A stretch of DNA of 64,000 nt from Folioceros fuciformis (taxonomy: Eukaryota): positions 27,769-91,768 of the forward strand of contig JBNGIO010006164.1 of assembly GCA_049999805.1 (NCBI GenBank), read 5' to 3'. Below are positions 7,512 to 61,440 of the stretch, one piece after another. The first letter of the stretch is position 1. Every line of letters starts with the position of its first letter. A model generated the notes under the pieces. That model made no database searches and was not told the DNA's origin. It was given only the letters and a program-made list of their open reading frames with translations. The position numbers and the translations under genes are program-made.

Positions 7512-8665
<1,154 letters not shown>

Positions 8666-31605: not shown

Positions 31606-34188
31606 TCAAGGTCGGCCCTTGCAAGTGCAGCAACCATTTGCAAATCGATGCACACGGTAAGCATCCCTCACAACAATGTGTCTGTGTTCAAGCCTTGACA
31701 TGATCTCCGTGGAACTGTGGCAGTCACTGCACATCCGAAGATTCTTGGTCACCACCAGAGGTGTCCCACTCGGAGTGTTCAAAAGCCCAAACGCCAGAGC
31801 CAGTTTCTCAGCATGCCCACAGAGCTGATCCTCCTTTTCCGCTGCAGACAGTGGCTTCAACACCAGTTTCGTGTGAGGCACGTGGCCTCCTTCCTGCTTC
31901 AACCGTGCATTCGTGCTCTCCACCTTCAAGGCAATATCGTCTCGCTTTTCTCCCACCGCAAATGTATGCACCTGCTCTTTCACCTCAATGCTCGCCATTG
32001 CAGGCTTCTTGTTTGCTCCTGCGGCCATTCTCTGTGTCTCAATCCTCTTGACATCCGTCCACCTGCCTGCATCTGCGTACACATTGGCCATGAGAACGTA
32101 AGCAGAAGCCCGCTGAGGGTCCAGCCTGACGATGCTTTCAAAACACCACGTCGCCCTCTTGACGTCCCCGTGGCTCTTGCAGGCAGTTAACAAAGCCGTC
32201 AGGCCCACAAGATTGCATTGGCCTTCGCAGGATAGCAGCATCTTCTCGGCCTCATCTAGGTGGCCTGCACGCCCAAGGAGGTCGATCATGCAGTTGTGAT
32301 GCTCAGGGGTAGGAGTGATGCCATGCTCTTCAACCATGGAATCGAAGTACATGCGACCTTCGTCCACCAGTCCCTCATGGCTGCAGGCTACTAGAAGGCA
32401 AGAAAACGTTGCTTCGTTAGGCTGAATATCGGCAGCTAGCATCTGCTCAAAACAAGCCAGTGCCTTGGGACCTTCATCGCAAGCACCGTACCCGGATATC
32501 AGGGCATTCCATGTCACCACATCCTTGGTGGCCAGGCTGTCAAAGACCCGGCGTGCAACTTCCAGTTTGCCACATTTCGCATACATGTCCACCAGGCAGT
32601 TGCCCAACACTATGTTACCCAGGAGCCCTCTTTCCACCATCAGTGAGTGCAGCTGCCTGCCCTTCTGCAAGGCACCAGTGCTTGCACAGGCCTTCAGAAG
32701 GCAAGCAAAAGTGACATCGTTAGCCAGAATCAGGCCCTCCTGCTCCATTTGGTCGTACACCACAAGCGCCTCCTGTCCGAGCCCTTGCTGTGCATACCCG
32801 GCTATCAGGGCATTCCATGACACCACGTCCTTCGAGGACAAGCTTTCAAACACCCGGCGTGCAACTTCCACTTCACCACATTTGGCATACATGTCCACCA
32901 GGCAGTTGCCCAACACTACATCATCCATCAGTCCTCGTTCCACAATCTGCGAGTGCAACTGCCTGCCCCGCTGTAAGGCGCCAGCGCTCGCACACGCATT
33001 CAGAAGGCAAGCAAATGTGACATCGTTAGCCAAAAGCGGGCCTTCCTGCTCCATCTGTTCGTACACAAGAAGCGCCTCGTGTGCAAGACCTTGCTGGGCA
33101 TACCCAGCAATCAGGCTCGTCCATGTCACCACATTCTTTGTGTCCAAGCTGTCAAAAACCTGGCGTGCATCTCTCAATTCGCCACATTTTGCATACATGT
33201 CCACCAGGGATGTGCCAACGAACAAGTTAGTGGGAATGCCACTGTGCGACGCATCACAGTGCACTTTCCTGCCTGATTCCAAGTCAGCCGCCAATGCACA
33301 AGCTTGAAGGGCAGCTACAAAGACGTGAGCATCCCCCTTTACTCCTGACCTACGCATCTCATGGTACAGCTGTATTGCCTCATTCGGTTTCCCTTGTTTA
33401 GCATGTGCGGAGATGATGGAAGACCAGGTGAAAACATCTGGTCTGCCTATCCTGGTGAACACATCCATGGCCTCCTCTAACCTACCTCCGCATGCATACA
33501 TGCGCAAGATGTGGTTCCGCACGTATGCATTCGACTCGTACCCAAACTCAACACTGAGATCGTGAACTCTTCCCCCAAGAACCAAGTCCTTCTTAGTTGT
33601 ACACAGTTTTAGCACAGTGCAAAACAGAGACGGAGGAACAGCACAGCCTGTGCGCGCCACACATTCCAGGGCTTGCACAGCCTCAAAAAGCTTCCCCTCT
33701 CGACATAACTTGCTGACGGTTCCAGCCGTGACTTCCCACCTTGCACCCCCGCCAGGGTCAGGGTTACCCAAAGAGCTCAGGTTGGAAGACGAGCCACCCT
33801 GACCCATCTGCATATCCAAGGACACGAGCTGCTCATCAACCCAAGCTGGTTTGTACGTGTTGTCGTCTGACCACAGGACCTCGCCGGACCCCTTACGCCG
33901 GAAGTCAGGCGAACGGGAGCTCTTCTTATGTCGTCTGTTATCCCACCACCGGGTAGGTTCCCACCCATGCTCCTGCTGCAGGCCGCGACCATCTGTGGAA
34001 AACCCATCCCCACACACACATTGAGTCGGAAGTGGAAATGCTGGAGTCCTCACACTGCTGCACCTGGAGGCTTTGTTCGCCCGGGGCTGACAGCGTAGGA
34101 CGAGGTGAGCGGGAGCCCCTCGCAGAATCCCTGTACACACACCAAATTGTTGGATCCACAACGGGTCTGGTTCGCTAATTGTGGTCAT
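31606..34188 (-). CDS. PLS-class PPR protein with E domains and a DYW:KP ('GRP') deaminase-like domain; candidate U-to-C RNA editing factor
   Basis: 860 aa single ORF; PLS triplets; KKPAMASIEV in place of the PG box; HAEKLA, KNLRMCSDCH; ends CTCKGRP instead of DYW. Confidence 0.93.
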   Translation of the reverse strand: MTTISEPDPLWIQQFGVCTGILRGAPAHLVLRCQPRANKASRCSSVRTPAFPLPTQCVCGDGFSTDGRGLQQEHGWEPTRWWDNRRHKKSSRSPDFRRKGSGEVLWSDDNTYKPAWVDEQLVSLDMQMGQGGSSSNLSSLGNPDPGGGARWEVTAGTVSKLCREGKLFEAVQALECVARTGCAVPPSLFCTVLKLCTTKKDLVLGGRVHDLSVEFGYESNAYVRNHILRMYACGGRLEEAMDVFTRIGRPDVFTWSSIISAHAKQGKPNEAIQLYHEMRRSGVKGDAHVFVAALQACALAADLESGRKVHCDASHSGIPTNLFVGTSLVDMYAKCGELRDARQVFDSLDTKNVVTWTSLIAGYAQQGLAHEALLVYEQMEQEGPLLANDVTFACLLNACASAGALQRGRQLHSQIVERGLMDDVVLGNCLVDMYAKCGEVEVARRVFESLSSKDVVSWNALIAGYAQQGLGQEALVVYDQMEQEGLILANDVTFACLLKACASTGALQKGRQLHSLMVERGLLGNIVLGNCLVDMYAKCGKLEVARRVFDSLATKDVVTWNALISGYGACDEGPKALACFEQMLAADIQPNEATFSCLLVACSHEGLVDEGRMYFDSMVEEHGITPTPEHHNCMIDLLGRAGHLDEAEKMLLSCEGQCNLVGLTALLTACKSHGDVKRATWCFESIVRLDPQRASAYVLMANVYADAGRWTDVKRIETQRMAAGANKKPAMASIEVKEQVHTFAVGEKRDDIALKVESTNARLKQEGGHVPHTKLVLKPLSAAEKEDQLCGHAEKLALAFGLLNTPSGTPLVVTKNLRMCSDCHSSTEIMSRLEHRHIVVRDAYRVHRFANGCCTCKGRP

Positions 34189-34936
34189 CGTTCAGGCATC
34201 CCTGCTGGTAGCTGAGGCTACCGATGGCTTCTGGCAGGACCCCCACCAACCCGGAGGATGGTGAGATCATACCCTGCAAACAGCTTCACCGAGAAAGAGA
34301 ACACCCTACTTTCAAAGCACCGAACAGCAGAAATGGTAATCACGAATGCGTTGTCCTCAATTGCTTCGTTCCAGAGAAAAGATGAATTCATTCGATTCTG
34401 ATAGTGACAAGATATCAGTCGTCCGACTATGCTCCGTGTCCCGCCATTGGAGCGCTTTCTTATTCACTAACGTGTGGAAACGCTAATTCACAACACAGAA
34501 CACGCTAATTGACAACACAGAACCTTTGATTCAAATGCTCACTTCGCTACAAGCTTCTCGGTTATCATTGCACATTGAAAAACACTTAGTGCAATCACAG
34601 TTCATCAAGCACTTAGTGCATCACTATCATCAAGCTTTCTAGGCGAACTTTCAAAAGAATGTTCTTTTGAAAGTTCAAGCGATCATTCTTTCCTCCTCAC
34701 TATATACCTCCATTGGATATCCTATAATGCATCCAACTTTATAGGTTCACCCAAATAATATTTGATCTCCTCAAAATCGTTTTTTTAAAAGTCTGATTAT
34801 ACATAGCTCAAGCTACAGCCAAATTACAATACTTGCTCGCGTAGATGCGTAAGGTGTTAGTCTACATACTAACTCCTAAACTGCAGAGGTAAACAAACCA
34901 GAACTAGCGTGCAAGTGAGAGATCCCTCATCAATGG

Positions 34937-41430: not shown

Positions 41431-44400
41431 TCACCTTCCCCAAGGGCAGGCGTGATTCTTGTGTTCTTCATTCCCAGGAAATAGGAAGCTCGCCGACTTC
41501 CACTCTCTCCGCTTGAATCGTTTTTGATGGGACTGCCTCAGACTTTTTGCTGCAATCAATAAGTGCTCCCAAATGCGCCAGAGAAGAGCCTTAGATGAGG
41601 CCGGCACCGTTCCTCCATAGACCACGGAGGACTAGTTGACCCAAAGATGGAAAAGACAAGACCACAGTAACCCCCACCATTGCGAGTGAAGTAGAGCTTT
41701 GCCAAAGGTTGCATCCAACCCAAATAGGGCAATTTGTTCAGTGATCCTGAGGTTGGTGCCGGGAAGAATTCTTTGCAACCACCTGCCCACCTCACTTTAT
41801 ATCTCTTGGGCAAAGCTGCAGTGGAAGAACAAGTGCTTACTTTTGTTTGGGGCACCATAGGTACACAGTCGACACTAGTCTTCTCCCGTTGCAACCAGCA
41901 ACCTATCCCATCTATCCCTAAACCCACTCGTCCATGAAAGGCTTGATGCGGTTGGCCAGTACCTTGGCTATCACCTTGTACGTAGTTGTAAGCAATGTGA
42001 TTGGGCACCAATTGGAGATTGAAAGACTGGTGTCCTGCTTAGGCAGCAAGGTGATGACCCCCATGTTAAACCAACTCCCCACGCTACCCTCTTCCGAGAT
42101 CATGGCCACCGCCTTCATGAATAAAGGCTCCATAAACTCCCAGCCCCACAGCAAAAACTCTGGCGGGATACCATCATGCCCAAGGGATTTATTCCTCGGC
42201 ATCCCCTTCAACGCCTGAAGTACTTCATCCACAGTAATCAGCATATCCAACGCCCTGCGTTGAGCCTCAGACACCTTAGCCGAAAGTGATTCGTAGGAAG
42301 AAGACCACAGATGTTCCCACCCTGCCACCTTTCCCACACTCGAGAAAATTCCCACAAAGAAGAGGGCAATGAGCTTTTTTAAACCTTCCAATGACTCTTA
42401 CATCACTCCTTAGGCGTCTGGGAGAGCAGGAAGTCTCGCCCTGGGTCGATTAGCAGCCACCTTATCAAAGAAGAACTTGGATGGGCCGGGCCGTCCCCTT
42501 CCCTCACCCACTTGACCTTAGCCCATTTAAACCAGCCTCTGGCTCTGTCTTCTTCCAAATTGGCTAGAGCGCATTGCACCTTCGTTTGCCGGGCTTCTTC
42601 TTCCATTGTGAAGTCGCGCTCCTCCCCTGTCCTTTGCAACCAGCTTAGTTCCTCTCTCCAAAAGCACTCTTGTTGGCGCAATTCCTTCATTCCTTGGACC
42701 CCTCGCCTCCTCAAGTACCTGGTTGCTTCACTGTTAGCGCATATCAATTTGGAAACAACAGGTTCTGCCCCTTGCTCTATTCCTTGCCATATGTTTTTAA
42801 CCTCCTCGAACACTCCCTTTTCCTTGAGCAAGGACGTATTCATCCGAAAGTTTTGCGTATGGTTCCTTTGCCGCCCCAAGTCCGGCGCAAGCCTCAGGTG
42901 CAAGCTAATTGGGTGATGGTCAGAAAGGATCGTACCAGCGAGAATACTGTACTCCTGCACACAGGCCAACCACCCAGAGGGAATATAAAACCTGTCCAAC
43001 CTGCGCGCTCCCAAATCACGTTGTTGTTGGTTAGTCCAGCTGAACTTCAACGATTGCGGTTGACGATGCGCTGGGAGGGCCAGCCAAGGGTCCTGGATAG
43101 CCAAAACGGTATCTCTTAGTTCTTGCCAAGACATAAGCACCGACCGAATATCTACAGGCCTCTCCCCTCGGATATCTTCCCGTCTTTCAACAAAGTTGAA
43201 ATCCCCCGCTAGCATCCACGGGATCTGTTCATCCAGATGTGCCCCCAGTCTGCACCAGAGGTTGCTCCTATCAGAGCGAGCATTGGGGGCATAGATATTA
43301 CATATGCCGAGTGGGCCTTGAGGTGTTTGCAACACTAGCCACACAAACCTTCCCCCTTCATCTTGACCCGTTTCCAAGCTATTGTGGGTGTGTTCTGGAT
43401 GAACAATTATAGACACGCCCCCCCGGGTTGCTGATACTCGCTAAGTTGAGCGCTCCCTATTGTTTACATCTTTTGCTCTGGCTGCCACCCATTCTGTTCT
43501 ACCTGGAAGGAATAGCTTCTTCACTCTTTGGATATTGTTTGTAGAAAGTTTATGCTCCTGTAGGCAAACAAAATCCCAAGTAACCTCCTCTTCTAACAAG
43601 TGCTTCAGTCTCCTGCACTTCGAGGCCGTCTTTGACCAAGCCCCCAAGCCTCTCACATTCCATGAAATGATTCGTAGGTAAGGCCCCCTTTCATAGTTTT
43701 TTAGGGTGTCGATACCCATTTAACATGTCTTACTTGAGAATTTTCGAACCGCAGCAGGTTTGGGCACCCTAACCCCAGAGATGAGCCTAGATCGAGGCAG
43801 TTGATTGTTAGCTTTAAGGTCGAGGGACATTCTTTGAAGTCTTTTAGATTTTCGTATGGCAGGTGCACTCCTTCTACCCCCATCTCTTGTAAGCCTATCA
43901 GGATCTCCAACTGCCATATTCGGGGTCGAAATCCTATTTTTCTCCCATGGCACGTCTAGGGTCCACCTCCAGTTGGGAGAAAGCGGCATAGCTGGACCAC
44001 ATGCCTGTTTGAGGTGGATATCAGCACAATGTCGCTCACCCGTCTGATAAACCCCACTGAAGAACTCCACCTCCTTGCCTTCCTTACTGGCAAGCACCCC
44101 TCCGGAAGACAATGCTTCACTCGGGGCTTTTCCTTCCCCGAGTGAAGTTGCAGTACTAGAATAAGGATAGGAAGCAGCTCCCCCTCGTCTCTTAACTTAA
44201 CCAAGTACGAGTAAGTGTCCTGCATCTTCCTCGTAACCGTAAAGTGCACTGAGAAGTGTTGACCTTTCCGCTTGGCTGTTTTTTCTGACATCCGACTTCC
44301 CTGTCCCCGAATTGTTCTAGGATTCTCCTGCCCAGATGCGTAAACCCCTTGTTTTGCCATCTTACCCTGATCCCGACTCTTCTCCCAGGAACGTAATGGA

Positions 44401-47400: not shown

Positions 47401-48660
47401 GAAGCATGTCCTGTACCTTAAGCTTAACTGAATTCCAAAGCGCAGAAAACTGCTCTCCAGCCACTGACCCTATGTGGAAAGAGCGTGTGGGCACAGCCTT
47501 GAGCTCGCCCACCTTCGGCATCCAGTAGAAGTAAGTTTTCTCCACCTTCTTCCTCAAGAGCACGCACAATTTAATCTACGTGCTGCCAGCACCATCGCTC
47601 CCCGAGAAGAAATCTTGTTGCACTTTGCTTACCCATTTTTGCGCTCCAGGGTTAGTCCTCCAAAACTTCTTAGGAACACCTTTAAAACCCGGTAGTGGGC
47701 CTAAGGGCACTGTCTCAGCTTTGTCACTCCCACCTCCCTTTCCAGCCCGAATCGGACAATTCTGCTTCAGATAGTTATGCACACCACACACTCTGCACCT
47801 GATAGGCAAATCAGGATAATCGAAAAGCTGCGTGAAGCATTTGGTAGGTTCCTCCGCATCCCATACGACAACACCTTCCGGCAAAGCGAGAAGGCTATCT
47901 ACTCTTACCCTAAAGCGTGGCGGCTTACTGCTATTGAAGAAGTGAGAGTCCACCTTAGGCACTTCCACCACCCTGCCGATAAGCCCCAACATCTGGTGGA
48001 TCATTGGGACGAGTTGAACAGGCAAGGCCGGGAGACGCACCCATAAGAAATGTCGCTTGATTGTAGATCACATGATCGTATTCCCTGGAGACCAAGCTTC
48101 CACCAGCATCGGGATAGATCCTCGAAATGCCTCCGTTGTTTGCAGAGGGACTAGGCTCCATCTGCCTCGTCGCACTTAATCTGAAAAGAACCATCTGCCC
48201 TCAGGAAGACATACGTTGGTGGACAGCCCGTTACCTGTACCACCCAGTCTTCCAATTCCCCCACTGTAAGAGGACCTCCAGATAGCAGCCTTCCCACGAC
48301 CGAACTGGCAGCAAGATTGTCCTCCTCTTTTTGGAAAAATCTCGCTTCTGGGAGAACGTCCGCCAGGGGCCAAGCTGCAAACCTGAGCCTTCTTTTGCTG
48401 TTCCCGAGGCATACCTTGAGTGGTGCCCGCCCGAACTTGTCTCTGGGCAAAGTCCACCTCAGTTGTCCGTACCTCAGGTGTCCGTCCCTGCGAGTCTTCC
48501 TATCAACACCGCATTTTTCCCCCGCACCTGCTGTTTATTAGCACACAAACCGACCACTGCCGCCCATGTGCCACCTGCCGATCCCCCCATGGGGGGCTCA
48601 TCGCCTCCATTGGGCCACCGAACTAGCCCCTTCCGGGAGCCCCTCCATTTGTGCGTTGTC
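41431..48660 (-). mobile_element. L1/Tx1-type LINE, near full length but degenerate (ORF1 plus APE endonuclease, RT mostly deleted)
   Basis: ORF1 DUF4283-like region and knuckle DYPDLPIRCRVCGVHNYLKQNCP (47576-48040); ORF2 IISWNVRGL, LQEHK, NIYAPN, GDFNFV, RLDRFY, SDHHPI; RT start PGxDG-like and ITLLTTTYKVIAKVLANRIKP joined directly to the 3' end. Confidence 0.9.
45053..45519. mobile_element. Possible solo-LTR-like insertion in LINE ORF1
   Basis: 467-bp segment starting TGTCACAC and ending GTTACTCACA, with an AT-rich interior interrupting GC-richer LINE sequence; no target-site duplication found. Confidence 0.35.
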
Positions 48661-48764
48661 AAGATAGCACATTCCCCTCCATTTGTGCGTTGTCAAGATA
48701 GCACATTCNNNNNNNNNNAGATAGCACATTCCCCTCCATTTGTGCGTTGTCAAGATAGCACATT

Positions 48765-49850
48765 CAACCTGCAGCTTTCAGAACCCATTGCGCATGCAGA
48801 TCTTCATCTTCACGCGGGATCCTCATATGTCGCCACGCCACCTTATGGGAGGGGGAGCTCCTTAGACTTACTCCATAAGAAGTTGGAAATAATATGCTGC
48901 AACCTCGGCCGAGATGAACAAATAGTATCACATGGAAGCGGTCAAAAGGCGCAAACTAATTGCTTTCCTTATGAACCTGAGGCACGACGTAGTTATCAAT
49001 CTCCGCGTTCTCATCCTCTTCTTGGAATGGTAGGCCCAGGTACTTGTGTGACGATCCGGGTTGGACCCGCATAATGTGTTTGATACACTCGGGTGGCTCC
49101 CCCTGCATGTTAACGCACATCATCCTGGTCTTGCTCCAGTTCACGTTGCACCCTGATAGCTGACCAAATACCTGTACCTGGGAGAGTAAGGCTGTTAAGG
49201 ACGTCGTATCGGCAAATGAAAATAACAAGGTATAATCACCGAAGGCCGAGATACGCAGCTGCGAGCCATCCGGATTCTGAATGCCTTCAATCCTTGAGTC
49301 TTGCTTGACTACTCGCAAAAGAAAATCAGTGACAATTATGAATAGGAACGGGGCCAGAGGGCATCCTTGACGTACTGACCTCTTGATATCAAACCTGTTG
49401 GTAAAGGAGCCGTTCACAGAGACCATTGTTGCACCTATATCCTCGTAGAGAATTGCAATCCATCTGCAAAAGTTGTTACCTAGCCCAAAACTTCTCACAC
49501 ATCTCCAAAGGAAGTACCATTCAAATGAATCGTAAGCCTTATAGAAATCTAAGGAGATAAATACTGCCGGCTTGTGTTGAGATAGGGCATTAAACTTAGC
49601 CTCACGCAAAAGCAGCAAGTTATTTAGAATACACCTGTTTTGGATGAACCCCCGATGCTCCACCTCCAGCCAATCGTTCAAGAAGGGTTTGAGCCTGTTC
49701 GCTAAGACTTTGGCAATCACTTTGTAGGTGGTCGTAAGGAGGGTGATAGGTCGCCAATTAGTAATGGAAAGACTAGCATCTTGTTTGGGTAAAAGGGAAT
49801 GAGGCCTAGGTTAAACCATGGGCCCATACTACCTTCCTCAAAATCTCATC
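48765..49850 (-). mobile_element. 5'-truncated LINE RT fragment (second family member)
   Basis: NWRPITLLTTTYKVIAKVLANRLKP, LDFYKAYD, VRQGCPLAPFLF, SAFGDY (decayed FADD), KYLGLP, then FLW...KVAW. Confidence 0.9.
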
Positions 49851-49859
49851 ACAATACCA

Positions 49860-50310
49860 TTCTTGTGTCCATTTGTGAATCTACATTCTCAATCAAAAAC
49901 TCACATTCTTTCCTCTGATGCTTTTGCACCAAATTCAAAATCCTAATTAGCTCATAAAATAACACCGACCTATAATCTTACAAGCCCTTTCCCTTGCCTG
50001 CCATTCAATGCCCTTCACATTCCCAACCGGCTATTATTAGATCAATTTCTTCTTCCACTTGAAATTGTATCAATCCAATAAGTCTAACATCATGCGGCCA
50101 AGCAGAAAATGCTTGCTTCACAGCTTCAACCTTCAACTGTTCAGGATACTTTTTACATGATTTGAACACTCTTGCCTTCGCAATTGCCTGACAATCTTCA
50201 TCTGGATCACAATAAATGTAATGTCTAACCACATACCCAGTAGCCAACACAGCCTCCAAACCAGATGCAATTCTAGCAAACAGCTCAACCACAACCAATC
50301 CATACTTAGA
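49860..50310 (-). pseudogene. Retrotransposon-borne C5 DNA methyltransferase domain (motifs I-VI), truncated
   Basis: One frame: VVVELFARIASGLEAVL (I), YIYCDPD (II), HDVRLI (III), IDLIIAGWECEGH*MAGKGKGL*DYRSVLFYELIRIL (IV-V), FLIENV (VI). Confidence 0.85.
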
Positions 50311-53306
50311 CGAACTCAATGTTACAAGTTTATTACACACAGGTTCAAGTTTACAAATTGCTTCCTTTGTACAAGGTCGGATTTTATCATTTAGTTGAAA
50401 CTCAATCTGCCGTTTTTGAAGCTCTCTAAAAATTTCAGCTAATGCTCTACCAACATTTTCTCTCATTGCATCTTCTTCCACTCTGTTATGACTATATTCT
50501 TTTAAACATAACTTATCTATATGACGCTCAACCCACAACCTATCATCTTCATCTTTTTCATCCTATTCGTCCCAAGAAGTCATCATATTTACTACACACG
50601 CATCTTGCATGTCCTCCTGTAAATGCAACTTAAGTGGAATTATCGCTACTCTCATTCCTTCACCTTGTCGCCAACCCAGACGATAGTAAAACTGCTCTGT
50701 CCATAAATCCAATCCTCCTTCATACATGAACAAAGCCTTTGTCCCCAAAATGATATCAAAATTTCCAGATTTAACAATCAAGCATTTCATATCAATCACT
50801 GTCTCTTCTTCTGTTCCAAGCTTAAAACATAACTGCAATTTTTTCTGCATACTCTGACTCTAACTACAATTTTTCCTAGTCTCTCCCATCAATGCCTCCA
50901 AACCTCCATTGGCCAGCCTTATCTTTCATATTGTCTCCTGTATATCTCCCTTTCTCAATCCCATAGCATATGCCATGTTGAAATGAATCAATATAGGTTG
51001 CGCTCCCGAATCTATCAATACCTTTTCCGGCGCAAAACCTTGTATCAAAAATTCACATCCACCATTGCCCAGAAATGCAATTCCTGTCTAACTTTTGTTC
51101 TATCGTCATTATTTCGCATATTACTATCAAGACAAAGCGAAACTGTCTTGCTCAGCCTTTGACTTGCATCAGGCCATTCCACCATCACGTCCTGCAAAAG
51201 CTCTCGAATTTTTGCTTCGCTCACCTTGACGCCCAACTCCAACACACTTCGCATACAACCAATCACATCACTTTGAGACACCTGCGTTCTCTTACTCACT
51301 TGCTGTTCCGACACCTTCACTGCTCTGCCATGCATCTTCTCACCAAAATCTTTCATATCCACATCTAATACTTCAAATGATTGGGGATATTTCCAACCTG
51401 ACACCGCCGATCTTCCATGGTCCTTATGCTGACCCTCCAGTATTGTGTTGTATCTTTTCTGGACAGAATCTACTTCCAATGCATCTTCCATGTTCACCTC
51501 ACAAACAAATGCAAACATAAGCCTTCTCCTTCTCACCCAAATCCTTCCTTTTCTCCATTGTTTTAACTTCCTTGATCTTAACTCCGCCATTCTGGCCATT
51601 AGTTGCCTTCAACCTATCAATTTCAGCCTTCAAATCTGCTATATGCAACTCTAACAATTTATGAGACTTGTCAATCCAACCCAAATTATCTCCACTAGAT
51701 CCTCCAAACCTATTTCCTTCAACTCTTTGCACCTATCTCACATTCTTAACATTCTGTCCCTTAAAACCAAACTTTGTGGGCTTGAGAGATGGGTACTTTT
51801 GCCAACAAACTTTCTCCAAATGACCTTTCTTTCCACAATGTTTACAGCCTACATCCGTCTTAATTGAACACTCCATCATCACATGAGTATAACTCCCACA
51901 ACAAAAGCACTTTATCCCTTTTTCTGTCTCTACATTCATAACAGGTTTCATATACCTGTTGTCCACTCTTTACATGTTTGATTACTGTTGCCAAGTTGGT
52001 CTCCATTTAGGGAGATAATTATGTCGAGGAACTGTCACTGAAAATGCACCTCCCCTTCTGTTTGTGCCAACCTTTCTTCCCATAGCCTTTAGCAATGCCC
52101 TTGCCTAATCATGTTTCTCTGCAATTGGGAATACCTGATCCAACGTATATGTTTTACCATATAGTGTCGTTAATTCTCTAAATACATCCTACTTGATATC
52201 CTCATCCAAATTGCAAATATATTTAAAACAAATTTCCACCTTATTGTGCATCCCCGTATCTGTCCCCAGCTGGCTAGTTCGATTATAAAACATAAGTGTC
52301 GTTTCATCAGGTTTTCTTCTCAAATTTGCCAACTCTTCTATCTTCATGGCATTAACAGATGGAAATCTCATTTCCAATCGAATGAAAAATTCGTTTACTG
52401 GCTTAGCATGTTTACTGGTCACCACCAAATCCATGAAACTTCTCAGATAAAACTTGTAAGCATCTCCTCACAACAAGTTCCCTAACAAAGTAAATTCATA
52501 TCTAGGATTTAATTCAATGTTCTCACCTCCACACTCCTGCAACTTAACCATATAAAACATGCACATTAACTAGTTAATGAACACCGATGACTTGGGATGC
52601 CCTGAATACTTCTCACTCTTTGCAGGTAATACTACTCCCCCTCTGCCTTTTCTTTTCAACCCAAAAGTTTTCTCAGTCGACAAGTTTAACATTTGGCATT
52701 CTTTTCTTCTCACCAACTTTCCCATGTCATTTACTTCTCCTGGATGTCTTTGCACTTCCATAGGCTCCACGGTCCGGTTTTGTACATCCATAACAAGTTC
52801 TTTCAAACCCTCTTTCCTTGCACACATGCCTCCACTCTTCGTCAGACAGTTGTAGCCTTCCTTCCCTTACTTCTACCCCTACAGACATTTTATGTCTTAT
52901 CTATGTCCCCGTTAAGATATGCATTTCCAACTTCTCCCTCTATCTCTCTACCTGAAACACTCGCCCTATGCGAATTTTCTCCTTCCTCATCCAAGGCACT
53001 GCCTGAGATATAACTCCCCCCCAAACCCTTGACATTTCCTCCTTTACTATTCATCTTTGGCTGCCCAACCTTTTTCTTAAATCCTCTGTCTGAACTCTTA
53101 TCTTCCATTACTCTCTTTTTACCTCTCCCAACTTTTACACTATCAGTTTCACTTCTCGACTTAGACAGCACACCAGCCTGCTTAACACTCACCCACGTCA
53201 CCCTTACACCTTTGGTCATAAGTCTCCTCATGTTAAAAGTTCAGCACCAATTCAAATGAGAATTATCAGATAACTTTTACAGCTAATCAAGTTTTACACT
53301 GGTTTG

Positions 53307-53396
53307 TATCCAAACCAACACGGAAACAGTGTGGAATATACTAGCTCAAAATATCCAAACCAATACGAAAACAGTGTGGAATATACTAGCTCAAAA
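53307..53396. repeat. 45-bp tandem duplication
   Basis: tatccaaaccaa(c/t)acg(g/a)aaacagtgtggaatatactagctcaaaa occurs twice. Confidence 0.85.
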
Positions 53397-53660
53397 ATCA
53401 AAAACTGGACGCCTTGTAGCATTCCACACTAAGTTCACTTCTCCTTCTTTTCTTTCTAAAGACACCACTAAACTTTTCACATCCAAAAAGTATCTTCGAA
53501 GCACTATCAAATCATCACAGAATACTTTTAGTTGACTCCAACTACCCGGTCTTGAACACCCTATTATGAGGGACCACAAATATTATGAGGCTTCTTTCCT
53601 TTTGTTCTTCTTCCTCCTTGCTAAGCTCTTGATCCTCCTTGGAAATTTGCTCTTCGCTCG

Positions 53661-53806
53661 CCCAGCTCCTTTTTCTCTTATGCTTTCTCCAAATTGCTCT
53701 TCTTTAGTCCAATCTCCTCACCCAGTTGAGTTCCCAGCTCCTTTTTCTCTTATGCTTTCTTCAAATTGCTCTTCTTTAGTCCAATCTCCTCACCCAATTG
53801 AGTTCC
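53661..53806. repeat. 72-bp tandem duplication
   Basis: cccagctcctttttctcttatgctttct...cacccagttgagtt at 53661 and 53733. Confidence 0.85.
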
Positions 53807-54109
53807 TCCAACACAGCTTCTTCCACAGTTATTCCCCCAACATTTCACCAATTACATCCAGAAACAAGCTGATAATGATAAACTCGCTTATCGGCACTCT
53901 TCACGAACAAACTTTAATCACACTTCATTATAAGTTGTTTTCTCATTACACTCACTTCAGAACAACTTTAGCTGGATCAACTTAATCAAATTTTTTCACG
54001 CTACTGCATCCTCATCACTACTGCTACTCACCACTTCTATATCAGCCCAAGTTTAGCCTTTGAACCTTCTAAGCGAAAGATCCTCTTAGGGAAGATTCTT
54101 CCCAGACGC

Positions 54110-55445
54110 TTCCCCGTAAGGAGAATATTAGGGCACCCTCACCAACCTTTCATCTCGTGAAACCTCGTCAATAAGCTCTGCCTCTCCCCGCTTGGTAATT
54201 GGAACTTCTTTTGGGAGGCTCCTGTTTGTGGTAGTCCTTTACGCTCCTTGACTCTTCCTCGCCCTTCCGCTTGCTTCCAGCACCGCCTTGAGTTTGCACC
54301 TATTCTCCTCGTTTGAGTTGTTGGTACTACCGTGTTATGACCTATTCTCCTCGTTTGAGCTGTTGGTACTGCCGCGTTATGACCTATTCTCCTCGTTTGA
54401 GCTGTTGGTACTGCCGCGTTGTGACCTATTCTCCTCGTTTGAGGAGTTGGTACTGCCGCATTATGACCTATTCTCCTCGTTTGAGCTGTTGGTACTGCCG
54501 CGTTATGACCTATTCTCCTTGTTTGAGTTGTTGGTACTGCCGCGTTATGACCCGGTATGCCACATCCAGCTCTTTGCCCTTAAGAGTGCTAATAAGAGTA
54601 ATAGCTCCTTCCCCTCGCAACAACTTTGTGGAAATAATCTCCTCCAAAGAACGCCGTAGCTCCGCCTGCTCAGCTAGCAAATTCTTGAGTGTGATTGTAA
54701 GCTGAGCTCTCTTAGCAGCTCGCGCCGCGATTTCCCCCTTAAGCCTGTCCACAATCTCCTCCGCCTTAGCCCGTAGTTGAGCCAAGTCCTCTCTGGAGAA
54801 CTTGTGAGCCTCCACGAGATTCCACCGCAACTCGTTGTCAACCTTCAGGTCCTCGGCACTTGTCTCAGGCAACTCTTCTCTCCACCCTTCGCTTTCCACC
54901 TCCTCTTCCTCTCCTGCAGCCTTCCCTACGATTTCCTCGCCAAGTAGTTTTTCAACTGCCGCTGGTTCGCTGCCTGGCTTCTTCCCGGAATCGCTTTCCT
55001 CCTGCAACGAAGAGCTAAACATGAATAACTGCCCGCGTCTGGGCTTGGGCGCAAATACAGCTGCCTCCTCTGAATGATCCGTCGATGTCGAGCCCTCTCC
55101 TGCACCCAACACTATAGACAGTTGCTTCTCCTTCCCCGCGTGCGCGTCACTCCCCTCTTCTTTCTCGCCTTCTCTTTTGTCCACCCCGTCCTCTTCTACT
55201 ACCGCCCTTCCCTCCTCCTTTTCTTGGCACTCCTTAGAAGCTCCACCTGCTAACAAACCTGCTCTCTTGCTCTCAGCATACGTCATAACGTGGTAGCTGA
55301 AACGAGGAGAATAGGTGCAGCCTGAAGGCGGCGCTGGAAGCAAGCGGAAGGGCGAGGAAGAGCCAAGGAGCGTGGAGGACTACCACAAACGGGATCCTCC
55401 CAAAAGAAGTTCCTAGAAGGTCCAATATTCCCCTTAGGACGAGGC
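54110..55445. mobile_element. Foldback-like element with long imperfect inverted arms enclosing a Glu-rich ORF
   Basis: 54201-54340 is the near reverse complement of 55281-55413; outer match gtaaggagaatatt (~54116) / aatattcccctta (~55424); internal 277 aa ORF 54510-55343 (-). Confidence 0.7.
54298..54551. repeat. 42-bp minisatellite, 6 copies, grown from the inner end of the left inverted arm
   Basis: acctattctcctcgtttgagctgttggtactgccgcgttatg; period 42 at 54299, 54341, 54383, 54425, 54467, 54509. Confidence 0.95.
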
Positions 55446-55712
55446 GAGAGGTGGATCCGTACTGTCGTCCTTGTCCATGTCGCAGTTTGGACAGCGATGG
55501 AGTGAGGCAAGCCGATTTGCAACTGGACGGGCAGCAATGCCCGATGGGCGTGCACACTAGAGCTAAGACGTTCGTTCGACTTGTACAATCTCTCTTTACG
55601 ATGAGAGGCGGATCAGTGATAGCTATCATCTCCATGTCCTAGCAATTACATTTAACCTCAAAGACACAACAATGTTTTCTGGTGTACACGCTTCAACAGA
55701 TGTCCATTGTTC

Positions 55713-56830
55713 TCAAGGTCTCCCATTACTACAGATGCAACAACCATTTGCAAATCGATGAACATGGAATCCATCCCTTAAACAATGTGTCTCTGTTCAA
55801 CCCCTGACATTATCTCGGTGGAACTGTGGCAGTCACTACACATCCGTAGATTCTTCGTTACCATCAGAGGTGTGCCACTGGGAGTGCGCGTAAGACCAAA
55901 CGCCAGAGCTAGCTTCTCAGCAAGCCCACAGAGCTGATCCTCCGTTTCCATTTCAGACAGAGTACTGGTTGCAACACCAAATTTGTGTGAGGCACGTCCA
56001 CTAGACCGTTGCCTAACACAACGTTATCCAGCAGTCTTCTTCCGACAATGAGTGAGTGTAGCTGCCTGCCCTTCTATTAGGCATGGCACCAATGCTTGCA
56101 CAGGCCTTGAGAAGGCAGGCAAAAGTAACATGGTTGGCCAAAACCAGCCCTTCCTGCTCCATTTGTTCATGCAGAACAAGCGCCAAGCGCCTCACGTCCG
56201 AGCCCATGCTGCCAAAAACCTGGCGGGCATCCTTCAGTTTACCACATTTTGCATATCTAGATATGAAGGCATTCCATGTCGCCACATCCTTTGTGGCCAT
56301 GCTGTCGAAAACCTGGCGTGCACTACAACGCTCACTTCTCCATATTTTGCATACAAGACCACCAGGAAGTTGTTGAAAAACAAGTCGGAAGGAATGCCAC
56401 AGTGCAGCACATCATGGTGCACCTTTCTGCCAGATTCCAAGAGGGCGGCAAATGCAAATGCGCAAGCATGAAGCGCAGCGACCAAGAAATGACAGTTGGA
56501 TTGCACTCTAGAGCTACGCCTGTCATGTTACAGTCGTGTAGCCTCTTTCAGTTTGCCATGCTTAGCATGCGCAGAGATGATGAAAACCCACATCAAGGTA
56601 TTTGGTACTCCTGCTCATGGCGACCACCCTCTATGGCAAACCCGACCGCACCCCCACATTTCCTCTGAAGCGGAATCGCTGGACTCCTCACACTGCAGCA
56701 CCTGGAAGCTTCGCTGTTTACTGGGCATTGACTCCTAGTAGCGAGGTGGGTGGGAGCATCTCGTACAACTCCTAAACACTCGTCAACTTCTTGGGTCCAC
56801 AACGACTTTGGCTTCCATACTGTTATAGTG
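55713..56830 (-). pseudogene. PLS-DYW:KP (GRP) PPR pseudogene, internally deleted paralogue of 31606-34188
   Basis: Same N-terminal extension (ASRCCSVRSPAIPL), PPR pieces, DQLCGLAEKLALAFG, KNLRMCSDCHSS, ends GCCICSNGRP*; frameshifts and large deletions. Confidence 0.88.
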
Positions 56831-57482
56831 GAAGAAAATGAAGACTTCAAGCAACCATCGGTGTCAAATCCCAAGACTACCTCTCAAGTCTGCCTGCACG
56901 ACTCTCCTGCTTAGCCTGGCTCTATCTTTCTCAAGGCTAGCCTCTTGGGTGTGGTGCAGCCACCAGTCCACATGCTCTGGGTGCCATTTTGTGATGTCCA
57001 ATGCCACCAGAGATATCAAGAACTCCCAAAGGCTAACCACACGACCCCACGTTTCTCAACGCGTCCCCTCTCCCTGCCCATGTCGAGGTTTCTGTTATGC
57101 TGGCCATAGTCCAGGGTCCATGGCTATGTGAGCCCCCATAACATAATTTACTCCACATTTTCATATTCTACATAAAGACCATTTTATCAACTTATTCCAA
57201 AGAATATCTCTATATTCCTTCTCCTAAATCTATGTTGTAGGTTATCCTTATTATGATCCTGGCATATGCATATAGTCAAAAGAATCTATGAAATCTATTT
57301 GACTTGTAATATATATTACTATATATAACTATTATTTAATATTTTACGTTCACCTAAATATTAGTCTAGAGAAGACTAGAATCTAATTTAAGTTCATGTC
57401 AGTTCCTCATTTGAATTTAAAAGTTCCCCACATGGTATTCCAAACAAAAGTTCCACATTTCAATCCTTTCACCACAAGGATA

Positions 57483-58004
57483 ATGGTACAAACATGGTTC
57501 ATTTTAATTTTCTTCTTGTTCATTTGTGCAAAGAAAGGTAGCAACACTTTGCATGTTCTTGCAAGACAGGAGAAAAACATTTTGAGACAAGATGATTACA
57601 TCGAATTTGATCCATTCAATGAAAACACAAGGCAACGGCAAGACCATTCTTACTTACAGGCAGACCGATTCAAGTTTCTCTTAGCTGCTACTTGTGAAGT
57701 GAGAATAGAAGAATCGGGCCAGTATGTTTGGGACAACATTGAAGTAATATGGCGTTATGGAGACACAGAAGAGGGTTATGCATGTGATAAACTATACCTT
57801 ACAAGTAAAGGCACCATCATAGTTTATGGCAGGGACGGGATACTAAGGTGGTCCATACAACCTCCTAATCTTGTTATAAATGATTCTGATACCTTTTACT
57901 TGGAGTTGTCTTATGATGGAGTTTTAAGTATGTTTCAAGAAACCTACCAGGATAATGAACATATTGCAAAACTTGTTTGGAGCAATTATGGTACTATTAA
58001 TTAA
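57483..58004 (+). CDS. Secreted bulb-type (GNA/B-lectin fold) protein, divergent; ORF open from 57396
   Basis: Signal peptide MVQTWFILIFFLFIC; three repeats each ending in W (VIW, LRWS, LVWS); LxLxxxGxxxxY/F pattern; two Cys in B-lectin positions. Confidence 0.6.
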   Translation: MVQTWFILIFFLFICAKKGSNTLHVLARQEKNILRQDDYIEFDPFNENTRQRQDHSYLQADRFKFLLAATCEVRIEESGQYVWDNIEVIWRYGDTEEGYACDKLYLTSKGTIIVYGRDGILRWSIQPPNLVINDSDTFYLELSYDGVLSMFQETYQDNEHIAKLVWSNYGTIN

Positions 58005-58169
58005 TTCATGACACTGATTCGTGAATTAATGTGACCACGAATTCATTCACCATTCGGTTTACGTTTTGAAGTACAAGTTTTACTTTGAATGCTTCATAGA
58101 TTGTACTTGTATTATATAATAAATGTTATTTTCTATTATTGAATTAGAGGAACAGCCCGAGAGGGCCAA

Positions 58170-58505
58170 AATGGGTAATAGCCCCTTCGAACATCATTCT
58201 AAAAAAAAACTACCATAATGCTCCCAAAATGTTGTGATAAATGGGTACTAGTCCCCTTTGAACATTGTTCTCAAAAACTACTTAACGCTCCCAAAATGTT
58301 GTGATAAATGGGTACTAGCCCCCTTCGAACATCATTCTCAATAACTACCTAATGCTCCAAAAATGTTATGATAAATGGGTATTAGTCCCCTTCAAATATC
58401 ATTCTCAAAAACTACCTAATGCTCCCAAAGTGTTATAATAAATGAGTACTAGCCCCTTCGAACATCATTCTTGAAAACTACTTAATGTTCCCTAAATGTT
58501 GTGAT
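58170..58505. repeat. ~67-bp minisatellite, 5 copies
   Basis: atgggtactagcccccttcgaacatcattctcaaaaactacctaatgctcccaaaatgttgtgataa at ~58171, 58241, 58308, 58375, 58442. Confidence 0.9.
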
Positions 58506-59224
58506 GTGTAGTAAGTTTATTATTCATGAAAGTTATAAAACTTTATTTAAAAAACAATTATTATATATAATCTTGTGTATTAGAGTGTGCCTCAAGTACA
58601 CCTAGTACCCCCTTTTAGCACGTACAAACATATCCTTAGTGGGATGCGTTTTTACGAGTGTCGATGCATGTTTGCACAGACCAGCAAAAACTAACTTGTG
58701 AGCCAGAAATTAATATTAATATTAGAAATTTTACCTCGGGTTTGGTTGGATGATTGATCGCTCTCGTGTCAACAGATGGCCTATGCAAGAAATTTGTTGA
58801 TCCAGCGAGACCTCTCTGGTGCGTGGTTGGTTACCGGGTAGGGGTACTGTAGCGGCGCTGAAGCTGAAGTTTGTCTCCCCACCTGCTTTTGATGAGGAGC
58901 ACAAGACAAGGCTTGACTTGAGCAGGAGGAAAAAAACTGGTACACGTTGTACATATTTCCTTCCTTATGGCTGTGGTTGGCTTTTTTTTCCCCTTGCTGC
59001 CGTTAGGTCAGTTGGCGGGAGGCGCTGTTTCCCTGGATGCGGCAGCCCGGCTGGAAAGAAGGAGCAGTAGCTGAGCAGGGGGAGTGTCTTGTCCGGGCGG
59101 GCGACTGCTGAGAATCTGTACTGTAGGCGCCGGCAGTTCTCATTTGCACTGCGCGCCATCTCAAGCTCGGGCGCAAGCTGCGGGCTCTCCAAGAAGTACA
59201 ACATTGCAAGAAGTTGGGGTGAAG

Positions 59225-60493
59225 ATGGAGGCGCTACCGGTGGAAGTTATCGGCAACATTCTGTCTCGTCTTGCAGCTGCCAGGGATGTCACTATCGCGT
59301 CTGCAACCTGCCGGAAATGGAGGGATGCTGCACGCTACCATCTTCACAGGTTGTGCTTCCACCACTCGGACTGGACGGGGTACGAAGACATGTCGTCGGA
59401 AGAGCTGGAGGTCGTGATCACGCAGACTATCTTGCAAGTTACCTGTCTCCATGAGCTCTCAATCTGCTTTGAGAGCGAGCACACCTTCTCAGCAGCACCC
59501 GTGGTGGCCTGGTTGATGCACACGCGTAGCACCTTGCGCTTCCTCACCTACATGGTTTCCACGCAGGAGGTGGCAATTCTGGAAAGATGTGGAAGGCAGA
59601 GACTGGAGAGTCTGGTTATCGGCAGCACTTCTGTGGTTCCTGCTTTGCACCTCGGCTTTCCAAGGTTTCCTTCCCTGGTGTCCCTGACTCTGGAGCAGGT
59701 TTACATAGCGGCTTCAGATATCCCTTTGCTTCTCATGGCTTGTCCGGTACTAGAGTCATTTTCTCTCCTGAGTCTCAGGACAACCTCCGATCCTGAGCCG
59801 TGTGAGCTCAGAAGTGCCAGTCTCAAAGTTCTCGTCATCGAAGAACTCAGAGAGCGTATGGAGATAGTGGTGGATGCTGGGAATCTCGAAATCCTCTCCC
59901 TGAAAGAATTAGAGCTGGAAAGCTTGCAACTCGTCAGCAAGTGCAACCTTCGGATCCTCCGCCTTTGCAACGTGCATCTCTTGGAGTTGCAGATCGGCGT
60001 GAGGGACATGCTTGAAGTATTGGAAATCACCGACTCCACGGTCGGCTGGTCAAGGCTGTACGGCTTCATCTCGGAGGCTGTTAAGCTACGCAAGCTCAAA
60101 GTGTGGGGCCTACCAGAAGTCGGTGAAGAAGAGAGCATCAACCTGGAGGCCATTGCCATGGCGTGCTCCCAGCTCTACCTTCTGTCTTTGGGCTTCGACC
60201 TATCTGATGTTGTTCTTCCGCAGATCTCTTGTCAAAGCCCCGTAGTGTTTCCCAAGGTTGGTATGTTGGAAATCTCGTCTCCTTGTATAAATTCCAATTT
60301 TGCAAAATGGCTAGAGGGAATGGTGGACAGATGCCCAAGCCTGACCAGACTGATCGTGCATGGCATGCTCTCCAGCCAGCTCTCTGACGCCAAAGGCCAG
60401 GAAGATTATCAGGTGGTTGGGGATTTCACCACTCAAATTGTATCCCTAGCCAGGAAATGTCCTAACCTAGCCGTAGAAATCTGCTACACTTGA
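59225..60493 (+). CDS. F-box/LRR-repeat protein (At1g67190-like), single coding exon
   Basis: MEALPVEVIGNILSRLAAARDVTIASATCRKWR F-box followed by Leu-rich repeats. Confidence 0.9.
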   Translation: MEALPVEVIGNILSRLAAARDVTIASATCRKWRDAARYHLHRLCFHHSDWTGYEDMSSEELEVVITQTILQVTCLHELSICFESEHTFSAAPVVAWLMHTRSTLRFLTYMVSTQEVAILERCGRQRLESLVIGSTSVVPALHLGFPRFPSLVSLTLEQVYIAASDIPLLLMACPVLESFSLLSLRTTSDPEPCELRSASLKVLVIEELRERMEIVVDAGNLEILSLKELELESLQLVSKCNLRILRLCNVHLLELQIGVRDMLEVLEITDSTVGWSRLYGFISEAVKLRKLKVWGLPEVGEEESINLEAIAMACSQLYLLSLGFDLSDVVLPQISCQSPVVFPKVGMLEISSPCINSNFAKWLEGMVDRCPSLTRLIVHGMLSSQLSDAKGQEDYQVVGDFTTQIVSLARKCPNLAVEICYT

Positions 60494-60519
60494 CACTTCT
60501 TCCAGTCTAAATTTCTTTG

Positions 60520-61440
60520 GAGGGCAGAAACTGAAGAGTCCGGTCAAAAAGGCGTCACTTCCGTGATTGCTGGTTTGCAGCTCGGCTTTCTAAGGTTTGC
60601 TTCACGGGTTTCCCTCATTCACACTGCAGCAAGTTTACATAGCGGCGGCTTCAGACATATCATCGCTTGTCCAGTACTCGAGTTATTTTTTCCCCTCAAT
60701 GTGAGGACAACCTGCGATGCCGAGCTGTGTAATCTCAGAAGAGCCTGTCTCAAAGTTCCCATCATCGAAGACCTGACAGCGTGTGAATATTGTGGTGGAT
60801 GCTGGGAATCTGGTATTCCTACTTCTGAAACAATAAGGGCTGGAAGCGTGCAACTCGTCAGCAAGTGCAGCCTGTGGGTCATTGATGTTGCGACGTGCCT
60901 CTCTTGAAGTTGCAGACCGGCGTCAGGGTCATGCTTCAAGTGTTGGAAATCACCGACTCCAAGGTAGTGTGGTCAAGGCTGAACGGCAACATATCTCAGG
61001 TAGTTCAGCTTATGGAATCTCAACCTGGGGATTCCCGGAAGTCGGCGAAGACTGGATCATCAACCTGAGGCCATGGCAATGGTCCCAGCTCTACCTTCTA
61101 TCTTCGGGCTTCGGCGGCCGAAACCAGAAATAGAACATCGGACAGGCCGAAGCCCAGAGATGAAAGGACACGCCAAACTCTTCGACCTCTGATTTATCAG
61201 ATGGCGCGTTTCCAGGGATGTTTCTCTTTTTCCTATCGTGGTACCAAGGTTGGTACCGTGGATGGCTTCCCCTTGATGCAACTTTGATAAATGGTCGGAT
61301 GGAACGGTGGACTGGGCCAAACTGACCGTGCATGGTTTATTATCCAGCCAGCTATCCAATACCGAAAGTCATGAAGTTTATTTCAGGTGTGTAGGAAATA
61401 CACCATTCAAATTAAATCCCTAGCGACGGAGTGTGCTATC
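60520..61440 (+). pseudogene. Decayed tandem duplicate of the 3' two-thirds of the F-box/LRR gene
   Basis: Colinear similarity to ~59590-60490 (e.g. ctcggctttc..aggttt, tgcaactcgtcagcaagtgca, ggaaatcaccgactcca, cccagctctaccttct); frameshifted, lacks the F-box. Confidence 0.85.

Follow-up and report, generated by a model that had tools for sequence, protein, structure and literature searches.

Published retroelements that carry a cytosine methyltransferase are limited to dinoflagellates and a single charophyte alga, and their gain was read as lineage-specific (PMC5890265). In the alga, Klebsormidium nitens, a Gypsy element with long terminal repeats (LTRs) contains Dnmt3 domains in its Pol open reading frame (ORF), which was interpreted as an independent gain of that lineage (PMC5890265). 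Elements of the DIRS and the long interspersed nuclear element (LINE) type in Symbiodinium also carry cytosine-5 methyltransferases (C5-MTases), and SymbioDIRS-Dnmt3 methylates CG sites de novo in yeast (PMC5890265). It was proposed that retroelement DNMTs methylate newly made cDNA (de Mendoza et al. 2018, PMC5890265). The yeast result for the K. nitens enzyme was considered inconclusive, because human DNMT3B failed in the assay as well (PMC5890265). Dnmt-bearing retroelements have likewise been reported for streptophytes and dinoflagellates (PMC12344493). The available parts of three papers on hornwort and land-plant chromatin (PMC10952607, PMC11982613, PMC11194755) make no mention of such elements, and a literature search, with most subscription journals outside its scope, returned no publication on a retroelement with a DNMT in land plants, Closterium or Mesostigma. 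Here, we describe the remains of such an element in a 64-kb stretch of DNA (contig JBNGIO010006164.1), which is referred to as the window in its full length.

The minus strand of the window holds what is very probably a dead, 3'-truncated copy of a Ty3/Gypsy-type element from a family (class A) in which a DNMT3-type C5-MTase is located between the protease and the reverse transcriptase (RT), in a setting of land-plant genes. A first-pass annotation had proposed a gag-like region, two CCHC knuckles, a retropepsin and a C5-MTase on this strand, and all four were recovered by tblastn, by ORF reading, with the Pfam family PF00145 and with a family profile. The METHYLTRANSFERASE of the window is confirmed by the profile scores to lie beyond chance. 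As a kind, Gypsy elements with a DNMT3 domain are already known; what is new is the land-plant-like host group.

The longest uninterrupted ORF of the methyltransferase region (50,005-50,562) gives no Pfam match when it is taken alone. A read-through peptide of 254 codons (P0001), in which X stands at the four stop codons, matches PF00145 with 27.3 bits at a curated cut-off of 22 (E = 3.1e-6), covering motifs IV-VI; this is the comparison that the first-pass annotation had recommended, and its expectation was borne out. Among solved structures, P0001 matches M.HaeIII and M.HhaI weakly (E = 0.002). A profile of 517 positions that was built from 14 relatives, the window itself not being included (A1), recognises P0001 with 174.6 bits (E = 1.9e-55) at profile positions 52-229. 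When A1 in turn is compared with solved structures, DNMT3A is the best match (E = 1e-21, 80.6 bits) and DNMT3B and DNMT3C follow at about 1e-19, with weaker matches to M.HhaI (6e-9), tobacco DRM (1e-7) and DRM2 (4e-5). An AlphaFold model of the family member P0012, built from A1, reached a mean predicted local distance difference test score (pLDDT) of 80.5 and a predicted TM-score (pTM) of 0.81. Because this model matches the catalytic domains of DNMT3A, DNMT3B and DNMT3C with target TM-scores of 0.78-0.82 over the whole target, intact family members are predicted to possess a complete DNMT3-like fold.

The alignment of the members exhibits ELFGGI..GLEA as motif I, AGW(E/P)CQ..S.AG.G.GL.D.RS.LF. 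as motif IV, ..EN(V). as motif VI and DAA..GS.AHR.R..W.N in the region of motif VIII, followed by ERE.A.G(F/Y). Twelve columns of A1 are invariant, G, W, C, Q and E among them, and the catalytic Cys, the Glu of ENV and the AHRxR motif are kept throughout the family; the longer form DAxxxGSxAHRxR occurs in 127 of 267 members. At the position preceding the catalytic Cys, the same 267 proteins read ECQ in 133 cases and PCQ in 56, with 22 other forms and 56 proteins, mostly fragments, that lack the motif. Class A proteins carrying the motif divide into 29 ECQ, 4 PCQ and 2 others, and the K. nitens member (P0059) reads FPCQ. Since ECQ is the commonest form in the family (133 of the 211 proteins with the motif), the GWEC(Q) of the window represents the prevailing type of the family and not decay. 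The first-pass annotation had taken GWEC as a mark that sets this enzyme apart. As a family trait the mark stands, as a universal one it does not, the PCQ of K. nitens being the counterexample.

Polyproteins of relatives align with the window far beyond the methyltransferase. The Closterium protein P0032 covers gag and knuckles with its residues 80-392 (52,512-51,511, E = 9e-14) and the region from protease through DNMT with residues 482-824 (51,021-49,852, E = 7e-27). Residues 30-119 of P0015 fall on the knuckles (51,861-51,616) and residues 253-597 on 51,084-49,981 (E = 4e-45), and P0021 from Mesostigma runs from the protease into the DNMT with residues 379-760 (51,021-49,882, E = 4e-29). 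On the gag side, P0046 aligns with residues 15-214 (52,401-51,781, E = 3e-12), with its residues 334-464 lying on the protease, and P0035 with residues 1-205 (52,488-51,796, E = 3e-10). The protease is further matched by residues 1015-1144 of P0004 (51,066-50,626, E = 2e-14) and residues 798-907 of P0045. Gag and CCHC are therewith collinear with the window in P0032, P0046, P0035 and P0015; P0046, P0004 and P0045 match gag or protease and then DNMT, in this order; and single tblastn alignments extend across protease, linker and DNMT in P0015, P0021, P0032, P0003 and P0025. The Pfam architectures of the relatives show zf-CCHC at the corresponding place, and DNMT and protease of the window share one reading frame. 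Because relatives from three streptophyte algae and from further sources keep the order gag/CCHC-protease-DNMT, we consider the DNMT a part of the retroelement, as had been claimed at the outset. All DNMT alignments of the relatives end within 49,813-49,981, and outside of 49,813-52,512 the family polyproteins yield only one weak match of 19 residues.

Pfam by itself sees little of the remaining domains. The knuckles reach E = 0.23 (zf-CCHC_5) and E = 0.89 (zf-CCHC), and the retropepsin, which can be recognised by its motifs LIDSGA (at about 51,021-51,004) and FDIILG, stays under the curated cut-offs of both PF13975 (E = 0.0062) and PF13650 (E = 0.16). The ORF at 52,189-52,467 within the gag-like region has no Pfam match. 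The linker between knuckles and protease holds, in another frame, an open ORF of 187 amino acids (51,045-51,608) that belongs to no Pfam family. For the upstream ORF at 52,890-53,240, which had been read as gag-like, no Pfam family was found at E<=1 and no relative aligned there by tblastn, and this reading is given up.

An exhaustive phmmer search with P0001 among 1.84 billion representative proteins returned 744 matches at E<=1e-3, 228 of them at E<=1e-10, with a best value of 6.9e-30; the best 150 of the 744 were listed. With P0001 as the query, a word-indexed search for longer proteins returned nothing. Among the matches listed, the closest relatives (P0002, P0003, P0004, P0005, P0010, P0014, P0015 and P0018) show 37-53% identity and stem from Logan, ENA and JGI records. 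Two full-length relatives, P0045 (2,188 amino acids) and P0294 (2,138 amino acids), exhibit the Pfam order zf-CCHC, aspartic protease, DNA_methylase, RVT_1, RNase H and integrase, so that the place between protease and RT, which the first-pass annotation had deduced for the DNMT, is actually seen in complete polyproteins. Full-length class A relatives bear rve and Integrase_H2C2. By Pfam, GAQ93235.1 of K. nitens (P0059) and GJP34393.1 of Closterium sp. NIES-68 (P0032) are CCHC-protease-DNMT proteins. A different arrangement was found in P0007, P0028 and P0038, namely RVT_1, RNase H, DNA_methylase (where Pfam is silent for P0038), integrase and PHD. Using jackhmmer with portions of P0045 and P0007 as seeds, we placed flanking domains in 223 family proteins, which resulted in 33 proteins of class A, 86 of class B (RT-RNase H-DNMT-integrase), 100 with the DNMT alone and 4 of odd order. 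The names occurring in class A are Klebsormidium nitens, Closterium spp. with many records and Mesostigma viride (P0021, P0285), those in class B Chromochloris zofingiensis, Haematococcus lacustris and Cymbomonas tetramitiformis. The best Atlas cluster of P0032 comprises 57 members with Streptophyta as the commonest phylum, which serves as a lead only.

For the tree, the part of the domain that is kept by the window was aligned to A1 (173 columns) and analysed with FastTree under LG+gamma; removal of exact duplicates and of rows in which gaps exceeded 25% left 162 of 169 rows. The tree is unrooted and contains no host DNMT3 outgroup, and therefore it says nothing about the root; a class B protein was used as root for display. 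The window is located in a clade of 48 tips with a Shimodaira-Hasegawa-like (SH-like) support of 0.84, the next node out (49 tips) having 0.96. Besides the window, this clade consists of K. nitens P0059, Mesostigma P0285, 16 proteins of Closterium and 29 further proteins. Its tips of callable order are 18 of class A and none of class B, and the other 114 tips, with Chromochloris and Cymbomonas among them, include 70 of class B and 5 called class A. Within the clade, the window groups with P0002, P0005, P0014 and P0018 (SH-like 0.90). The branches are long, with 1.7-3.3 substitutions per site from the window.

In comparison with the described systems, KnitGypsy-Dnmt3 resembles the window element in its LTR Gypsy type and in the unrearranged Dnmt3-type domain inside a polyprotein ORF (PMC5890265). 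The K. nitens protein GAQ93235.1, which we infer to be one of the published KnitGypsy-Dnmt3 copies, belongs to the same 48-tip clade and shares 34% identity with the window DNMT over 198 columns (E = 9e-22), but has Pro-Cys in motif IV where the window has Glu-Cys. KnitGypsy-Dnmt3 further differs in residing in an alga, whereas the window copy, dead and truncated, lies in a land-plant-like genome; and a gain specific to the K. nitens lineage, as the paper has it, contrasts with a window clade that also holds Mesostigma and Closterium (PMC5890265). The relatives from Closterium and Mesostigma agree with the window in the collinear order gag/CCHC-protease-DNMT and in a motif IV of GWECQ, corresponding to the window's GWEC, but their identity amounts to 25-40% only and their hosts are streptophyte algae. 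Class B Gypsy elements of algae contain the same DNMT3-like domain with the marks ELFGGI..GLEA, GWECQ and AHRxR; they differ in that the domain follows RNase H and precedes the integrase, in many cases with a PHD finger at the C-terminus, and in occupying another part of the tree. For these chlorophyte elements, no published description was found. SymbioDIRS-Dnmt3 and SymbioLINE-Dnmt are likewise retroelements carrying a C5-MTase (PMC5890265), but belong to the tyrosine-recombinase DIRS and the LINE classes; a DIRS-type element was ruled out for the window, which has a retropepsin and whose relatives have the DDE integrase domains rve and Integrase_H2C2. DNMT3A, DNMT3B and DNMT3C are the best matches of both the family profile and the model, and AHRxRxxWxN is common to the family and DNMT3A. 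Unlike DNMT3A and DRM, however, the family lacks PWWP, ADD and UBA partners and has its domain inside a polyprotein, and motif IV reads GW(E/P)CQ instead of the GSPCN of DNMT3A.

The window copy itself is an inert relic. Along the stretches that are homologous to relatives, the family frame is interrupted by at least 13 stops, six of them in gag and knuckles (52,512-51,511) and seven over protease, linker and DNMT (51,087-49,848), and the frame is lost between the gag/knuckle and the protease stretches. The first-pass annotation had placed motifs I to VI in one frame with two stops. The single frame holds, but the read-through contains four stops, two of them inside the span from motif I to motif VI and the other two shortly behind it. 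All other contigs of the organism differ from the window at many places; one such position falls inside one of the two within-domain stops, which is therefore private to this copy. Of the 12 invariant A1 columns, nine are kept; a Gly of motif I and the Gln following the catalytic Cys are lost, and a Ser is changed to a stop. The domain ends after motif VI, with motifs VIII-X absent. It is on account of these stops, lost residues and missing motifs that the copy is dead, as had been stated before.

The 3' end of the element is missing, and its remainder does not resume anywhere in the window. An RT does adjoin the truncated domain, at 48,956-49,810, and it was considered as the element's own. 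This was rejected: the fragment matches PF00078 with E = 2.6e-32, its best solved relatives are LINE-1 ORF2p residues 525-785 (E = 1.2e-26), and none of the family's Gypsy RTs matches it. The LINE-1-type fragment marks the point of truncation. It is repeated in the sequencing runs of the organism (depth 150-350), and a weak Exo_endo_phos match at 42403-43440 on the minus strand suggests further LINE remains.

Table 1. Features of the window in and around the element
Feature	Position	Strand	Basis or remark
gag-protease-DNMT remnant, whole	about 49,835-54,150	minus	composition, motifs, homology
5' non-coding head, possible LTR or leader	53250..54150	minus	outer boundary approximate
Upstream ORF, 116 amino acids, Lys/Arg/Gly-rich	52890..53240	minus	ORF list
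gag-like region, degraded, with in-frame stops	51970..52512	minus	tblastn with gag of relatives
Two CCHC knuckles, CX2CX4HX4C	51,909-51,868 and 51,846-51,805	minus	read in ORF 51,733-51,969
Knuckle-protease linker	51088..51732	minus	family frame full of stops
Retropepsin, degraded	50626..51087	minus	Pfam below cut-off, tblastn
Protease-DNMT linker	50356..50625	minus	homologous to linker of relatives
DNMT3-like C5-MTase, N-terminal part (motifs I-VI), four in-frame stops	49834..50355	minus	PF00145, family profile
LINE-1-type RT fragment, 5'-truncated, abutting	48956..49810	minus	PF00078, LINE-1 ORF2p
PPR gene, P-type, 953 amino acids, uninterrupted	23630-26491	plus	neighbouring gene
PPR-E-DYW gene, 861 amino acids, uninterrupted	31606-34191	minus	full DYW deaminase domain, E = 2.4e-31
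PPR-DYW fragment adjoining the element	55778-56411	minus	neighbouring gene fragment
F-box/LRR ORF	59075-60493		neighbouring gene

At its 5' side, the element is delimited by composition. A C-poor stretch (GC about 0.39, plus-strand GC skew of -0.3 to -0.56) stops near 54,150, and the flanks have a GC content of about 0.5 with a weaker skew. The coding strand of the element consists of 33.1% A, 11.1% C, 28.6% G and 27.2% T. G-to-A hypermutation was considered as the source of this C-poor strand and rejected, the G content of the coding strand being high (28.6%). Dinucleotide counts over 49835-54150 give observed-to-expected ratios of 0.46 for CpG, 1.23 for TpG and 1.36 for CpA. The neighbouring segment 44000-48700 also has more G than C on the same strand, to a lesser degree than the element. 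The head of the element contains two tandem repeats, one of 72 bp in two copies (53,661-53,806) and one of 45 bp in 2.2 copies (53,307-53,403). No second copy of the stretch 53250-54150 was found within 36,000-64,000. A motif for a tRNA-Met primer-binding site occurs at chance level (6 matches versus 5.33 expected), with none inside the element.

That the locus lies in a land-plant genome, as the first-pass annotation had it, is suggested by the neighbouring genes. Editing factors of the E-DYW PPR type, where they form large families, are known as a trait of land plants. The window encodes PPR-E-DYW and F-box proteins and a PAP_fibrillin protein, and the DYW protein has only Streptophyta among its nearest Atlas clusters; taken together, the host looks like a land plant.

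Contigs from four sequencing runs labelled as the same organism (X1-X4) were placed on 48,719-58,700 at 80% likeness. The depths given here are sums over contigs and not copy numbers, and the assembly itself may have been built from X1 and X2. Over 49,718-53,713 the summed depth is 94-370 in X1 and 69-224 in X2, and over the apparently single-copy segment 56,711-58,042 it is 9-13 and 6-8, which puts the element region at 9-35 times its single-copy flank in these two DNA runs. In X1, the summed depth drops from 138 to 32 at about 53,714. These values suggest that the element belongs to a repeated family in the DNA of the organism. Run X3, which is guessed to be RNA, leaves 50,051-53,047 uncovered apart from a single bin with 1.23 and is uninformative on expression either way; it does cover the LINE region and, in a diverged copy, 53,371-53,652. 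Run X4 comes from the same sample as X1 and X2 and shows G>A at 736 places versus 230 and 201, often in all X4 contigs and in none of X1 and X2. This pattern is the signature of a cytosine-conversion library of the bisulfite type, and methylation data may therefore exist for the organism.

Several points weigh against the assignment of the window copy to a class A Gypsy family with a methyltransferase, or against what would follow from it. A scan of 36,000-64,000 revealed no pair of direct repeats (LTRs) flanking the element, no target-site duplication was found in the window, and by tblastn the Gypsy RT, RNase H and integrase of the relatives have no match anywhere in the 64 kb. Because RT, RNase H, integrase and an LTR pair are absent, the copy is not classifiable by an RT of its own. 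The identity to the nearest relatives is low, and none of the 86 + 57 family proteins listed is named as a land plant. Most members have Glu in place of the near-universal Pro before the catalytic Cys of C5-MTases. The retroelement DNMT of K. nitens produced no methylation in yeast, a result that its authors called inconclusive (PMC5890265). Finally, the evidence for a repeated family rests on depths that are sums over contigs, in X1 and X2 possibly from the same data as the assembly.

Given the arrangement of the complete relatives, a mechanism can be sketched for intact members. Because the domain sits between protease and RT in the polyprotein, the DNMT is expected in the particle together with the RT: it would be made within Gag-Pol and packaged, and the polyprotein would be cut by the protease. 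Beside the RT, the DNMT could methylate the new cDNA before or at integration, and a new copy would arrive already bearing the methylation mark of the host. We propose this sequence of packaging and self-methylation tentatively, as a possibility of some substance; it follows the cDNA methylation suggested for retroelement DNMTs in general (PMC5890265) and is the simplest of the readings. A farther-reaching scenario appears doubtful to us, namely that an old Gypsy-DNMT3 lineage of green plants survived the move to land, that intact transcribed copies are present in this plant and that their enzyme methylates its own cDNA or the host DNA. If it were true, there would be a de novo methylation activity encoded by no host gene.

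Among the competing explanations, the one that survives best, although we regard it as somewhat unlikely, states that the DNMT-like domain of the family is not a working DNA methyltransferase at all. It could be a module that binds chromatin or DNA and steers integration, like the chromodomains of chromoviruses, or it could act on the RNA of the element. Glu replaces the near-universal Pro in 133 of the 211 members with the motif, KnitGypsy-Dnmt3 failed to methylate de novo in the yeast assay (PMC5890265), and class B combines the domain with an integrase and a C-terminal PHD finger, which would fit chromatin reading. On the other hand, distant members keep the catalytic Cys, the following Gln, the glycines of motif I, the Glu of ENV and AHRxR, as an active enzyme would; DAxxxGSxAHRxR is present in 127 of 267 proteins and the ordinary PCQ in 56 of 211. 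The negative yeast result loses weight with human DNMT3B, which was negative there, too (PMC5890265).

A second explanation concerns the route rather than the function: the family might have been passed horizontally into a land plant, with a streptophyte alga or some other organism as the donor. A patchy occurrence would agree with this idea, as would the fact that no land-plant-named relative appears among the matches listed, and an opinion article states that land plants, tracheophytes for example, lack transposon-encoded methylases (PMC6338049). However, collections hold few annotated repeat proteins from non-seed plants, and missing names are weak evidence. The window clade spans Mesostigma, Klebsormidium and Closterium, as old vertical inheritance with losses predicts, and the window is not nested in any one algal group and has at most 40% identity to any named protein. 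Altogether, we hold a transfer to be unlikely.

It is very improbable that the element represents algal contamination or a chimeric join of the assembly. A gap of 10 N with a 34-bp duplicate does lie 1.1 kb downstream, but a gap-free run leads from the element into the DYW-PPR fragment at 55,778-56,411, and a contig of X1 spans 53,945-54,363 without differences, that is, across the composition boundary. Also, the element reaches 9-35 times the depth of its flank in two DNA runs of the same organism, which are possibly the assembly's own and in that case not independent. The gap itself (48709-48718) has the exact 34-bp duplicate on both sides (Tandem Repeats Finder period 34, 100% match), with the same peptide read on both sides; the region 48640-48790 looks like an assembly join and not like biology.

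The weakest explanation, a one-off capture or chance juxtaposition that put a host DNMT3/DRM fragment beside an unrelated gag-protease remnant, could appeal to the repeat fragments nested in this region, such as the LINE RT and the tandem repeats, among which chance neighbours do arise, but is scarcely credible, since the protease-DNMT linker is homologous to that of the relatives as well and a chance neighbour is therewith excluded, single alignments run through protease, linker and DNMT in one frame, and the window bears the family marks ELFxxI..GLEA and GWEC, not those of DNMT3A. The reading as a piece of a host gene, DNMT3 or DRM, was likewise ruled out by the position in frame behind the retropepsin and by the ordinary motif order I to VI, which is not the rearranged order of DRM. 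The first-pass annotation had named three outcomes that would speak against it; what was found instead is a matching MTase profile, relatives that link gag-protease to the DNMT, and a domain that groups with retroelement DNMTs.

With the window copy read as a relic of the class A Gypsy-DNMT3 family, this family turns out to be old and much wider in the green lineage than published: Mesostigma, Klebsormidium and Closterium all have members, and chlorophytes have it in a rearranged arrangement of domains. The Glu-Cys variant of the catalytic motif is flagged across the family. Where the family is repeated in a genome that looks like that of a land plant, the question of what a silencing enzyme does for an element at which silencing is directed becomes testable, and this in a plant whose relatives are tractable. 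The relevance is to the evolution of transposons and epigenomes; the window copy itself has no function.

A few further observations were made in the window. At the PPR-DYW fragment (55778-56411), where the placed contigs have many joints, the DNA runs rise to a summed depth of 2,200-3,700 and the presumed RNA run to 5,500-12,900, which indicates that PPR-DYW genes of this kind form a very large family. Next to the element, the segment 54139-54579 contains a 42-bp tandem repeat of 6.1 copies with 93% matches (54298-54552), which corresponds to a repeated peptide of 14 residues in a minus-strand ORF; the adjacent ORF of 289 amino acids (54510-55379, minus strand) belongs to no Pfam family. A plus-strand open frame of 1,440 amino acids at 12987-17309 lies in a region of positive GC skew and has a marginal CPAP tubulin-binding match (E = 1.8e-4) as its sole Pfam match. 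Finally, direct repeats that are 79-83% alike and spaced by about 925 bp extend over 59733-61010, within and past the F-box/LRR ORF, and are probably the product of a tandem duplication that involved LRR units or the gene.

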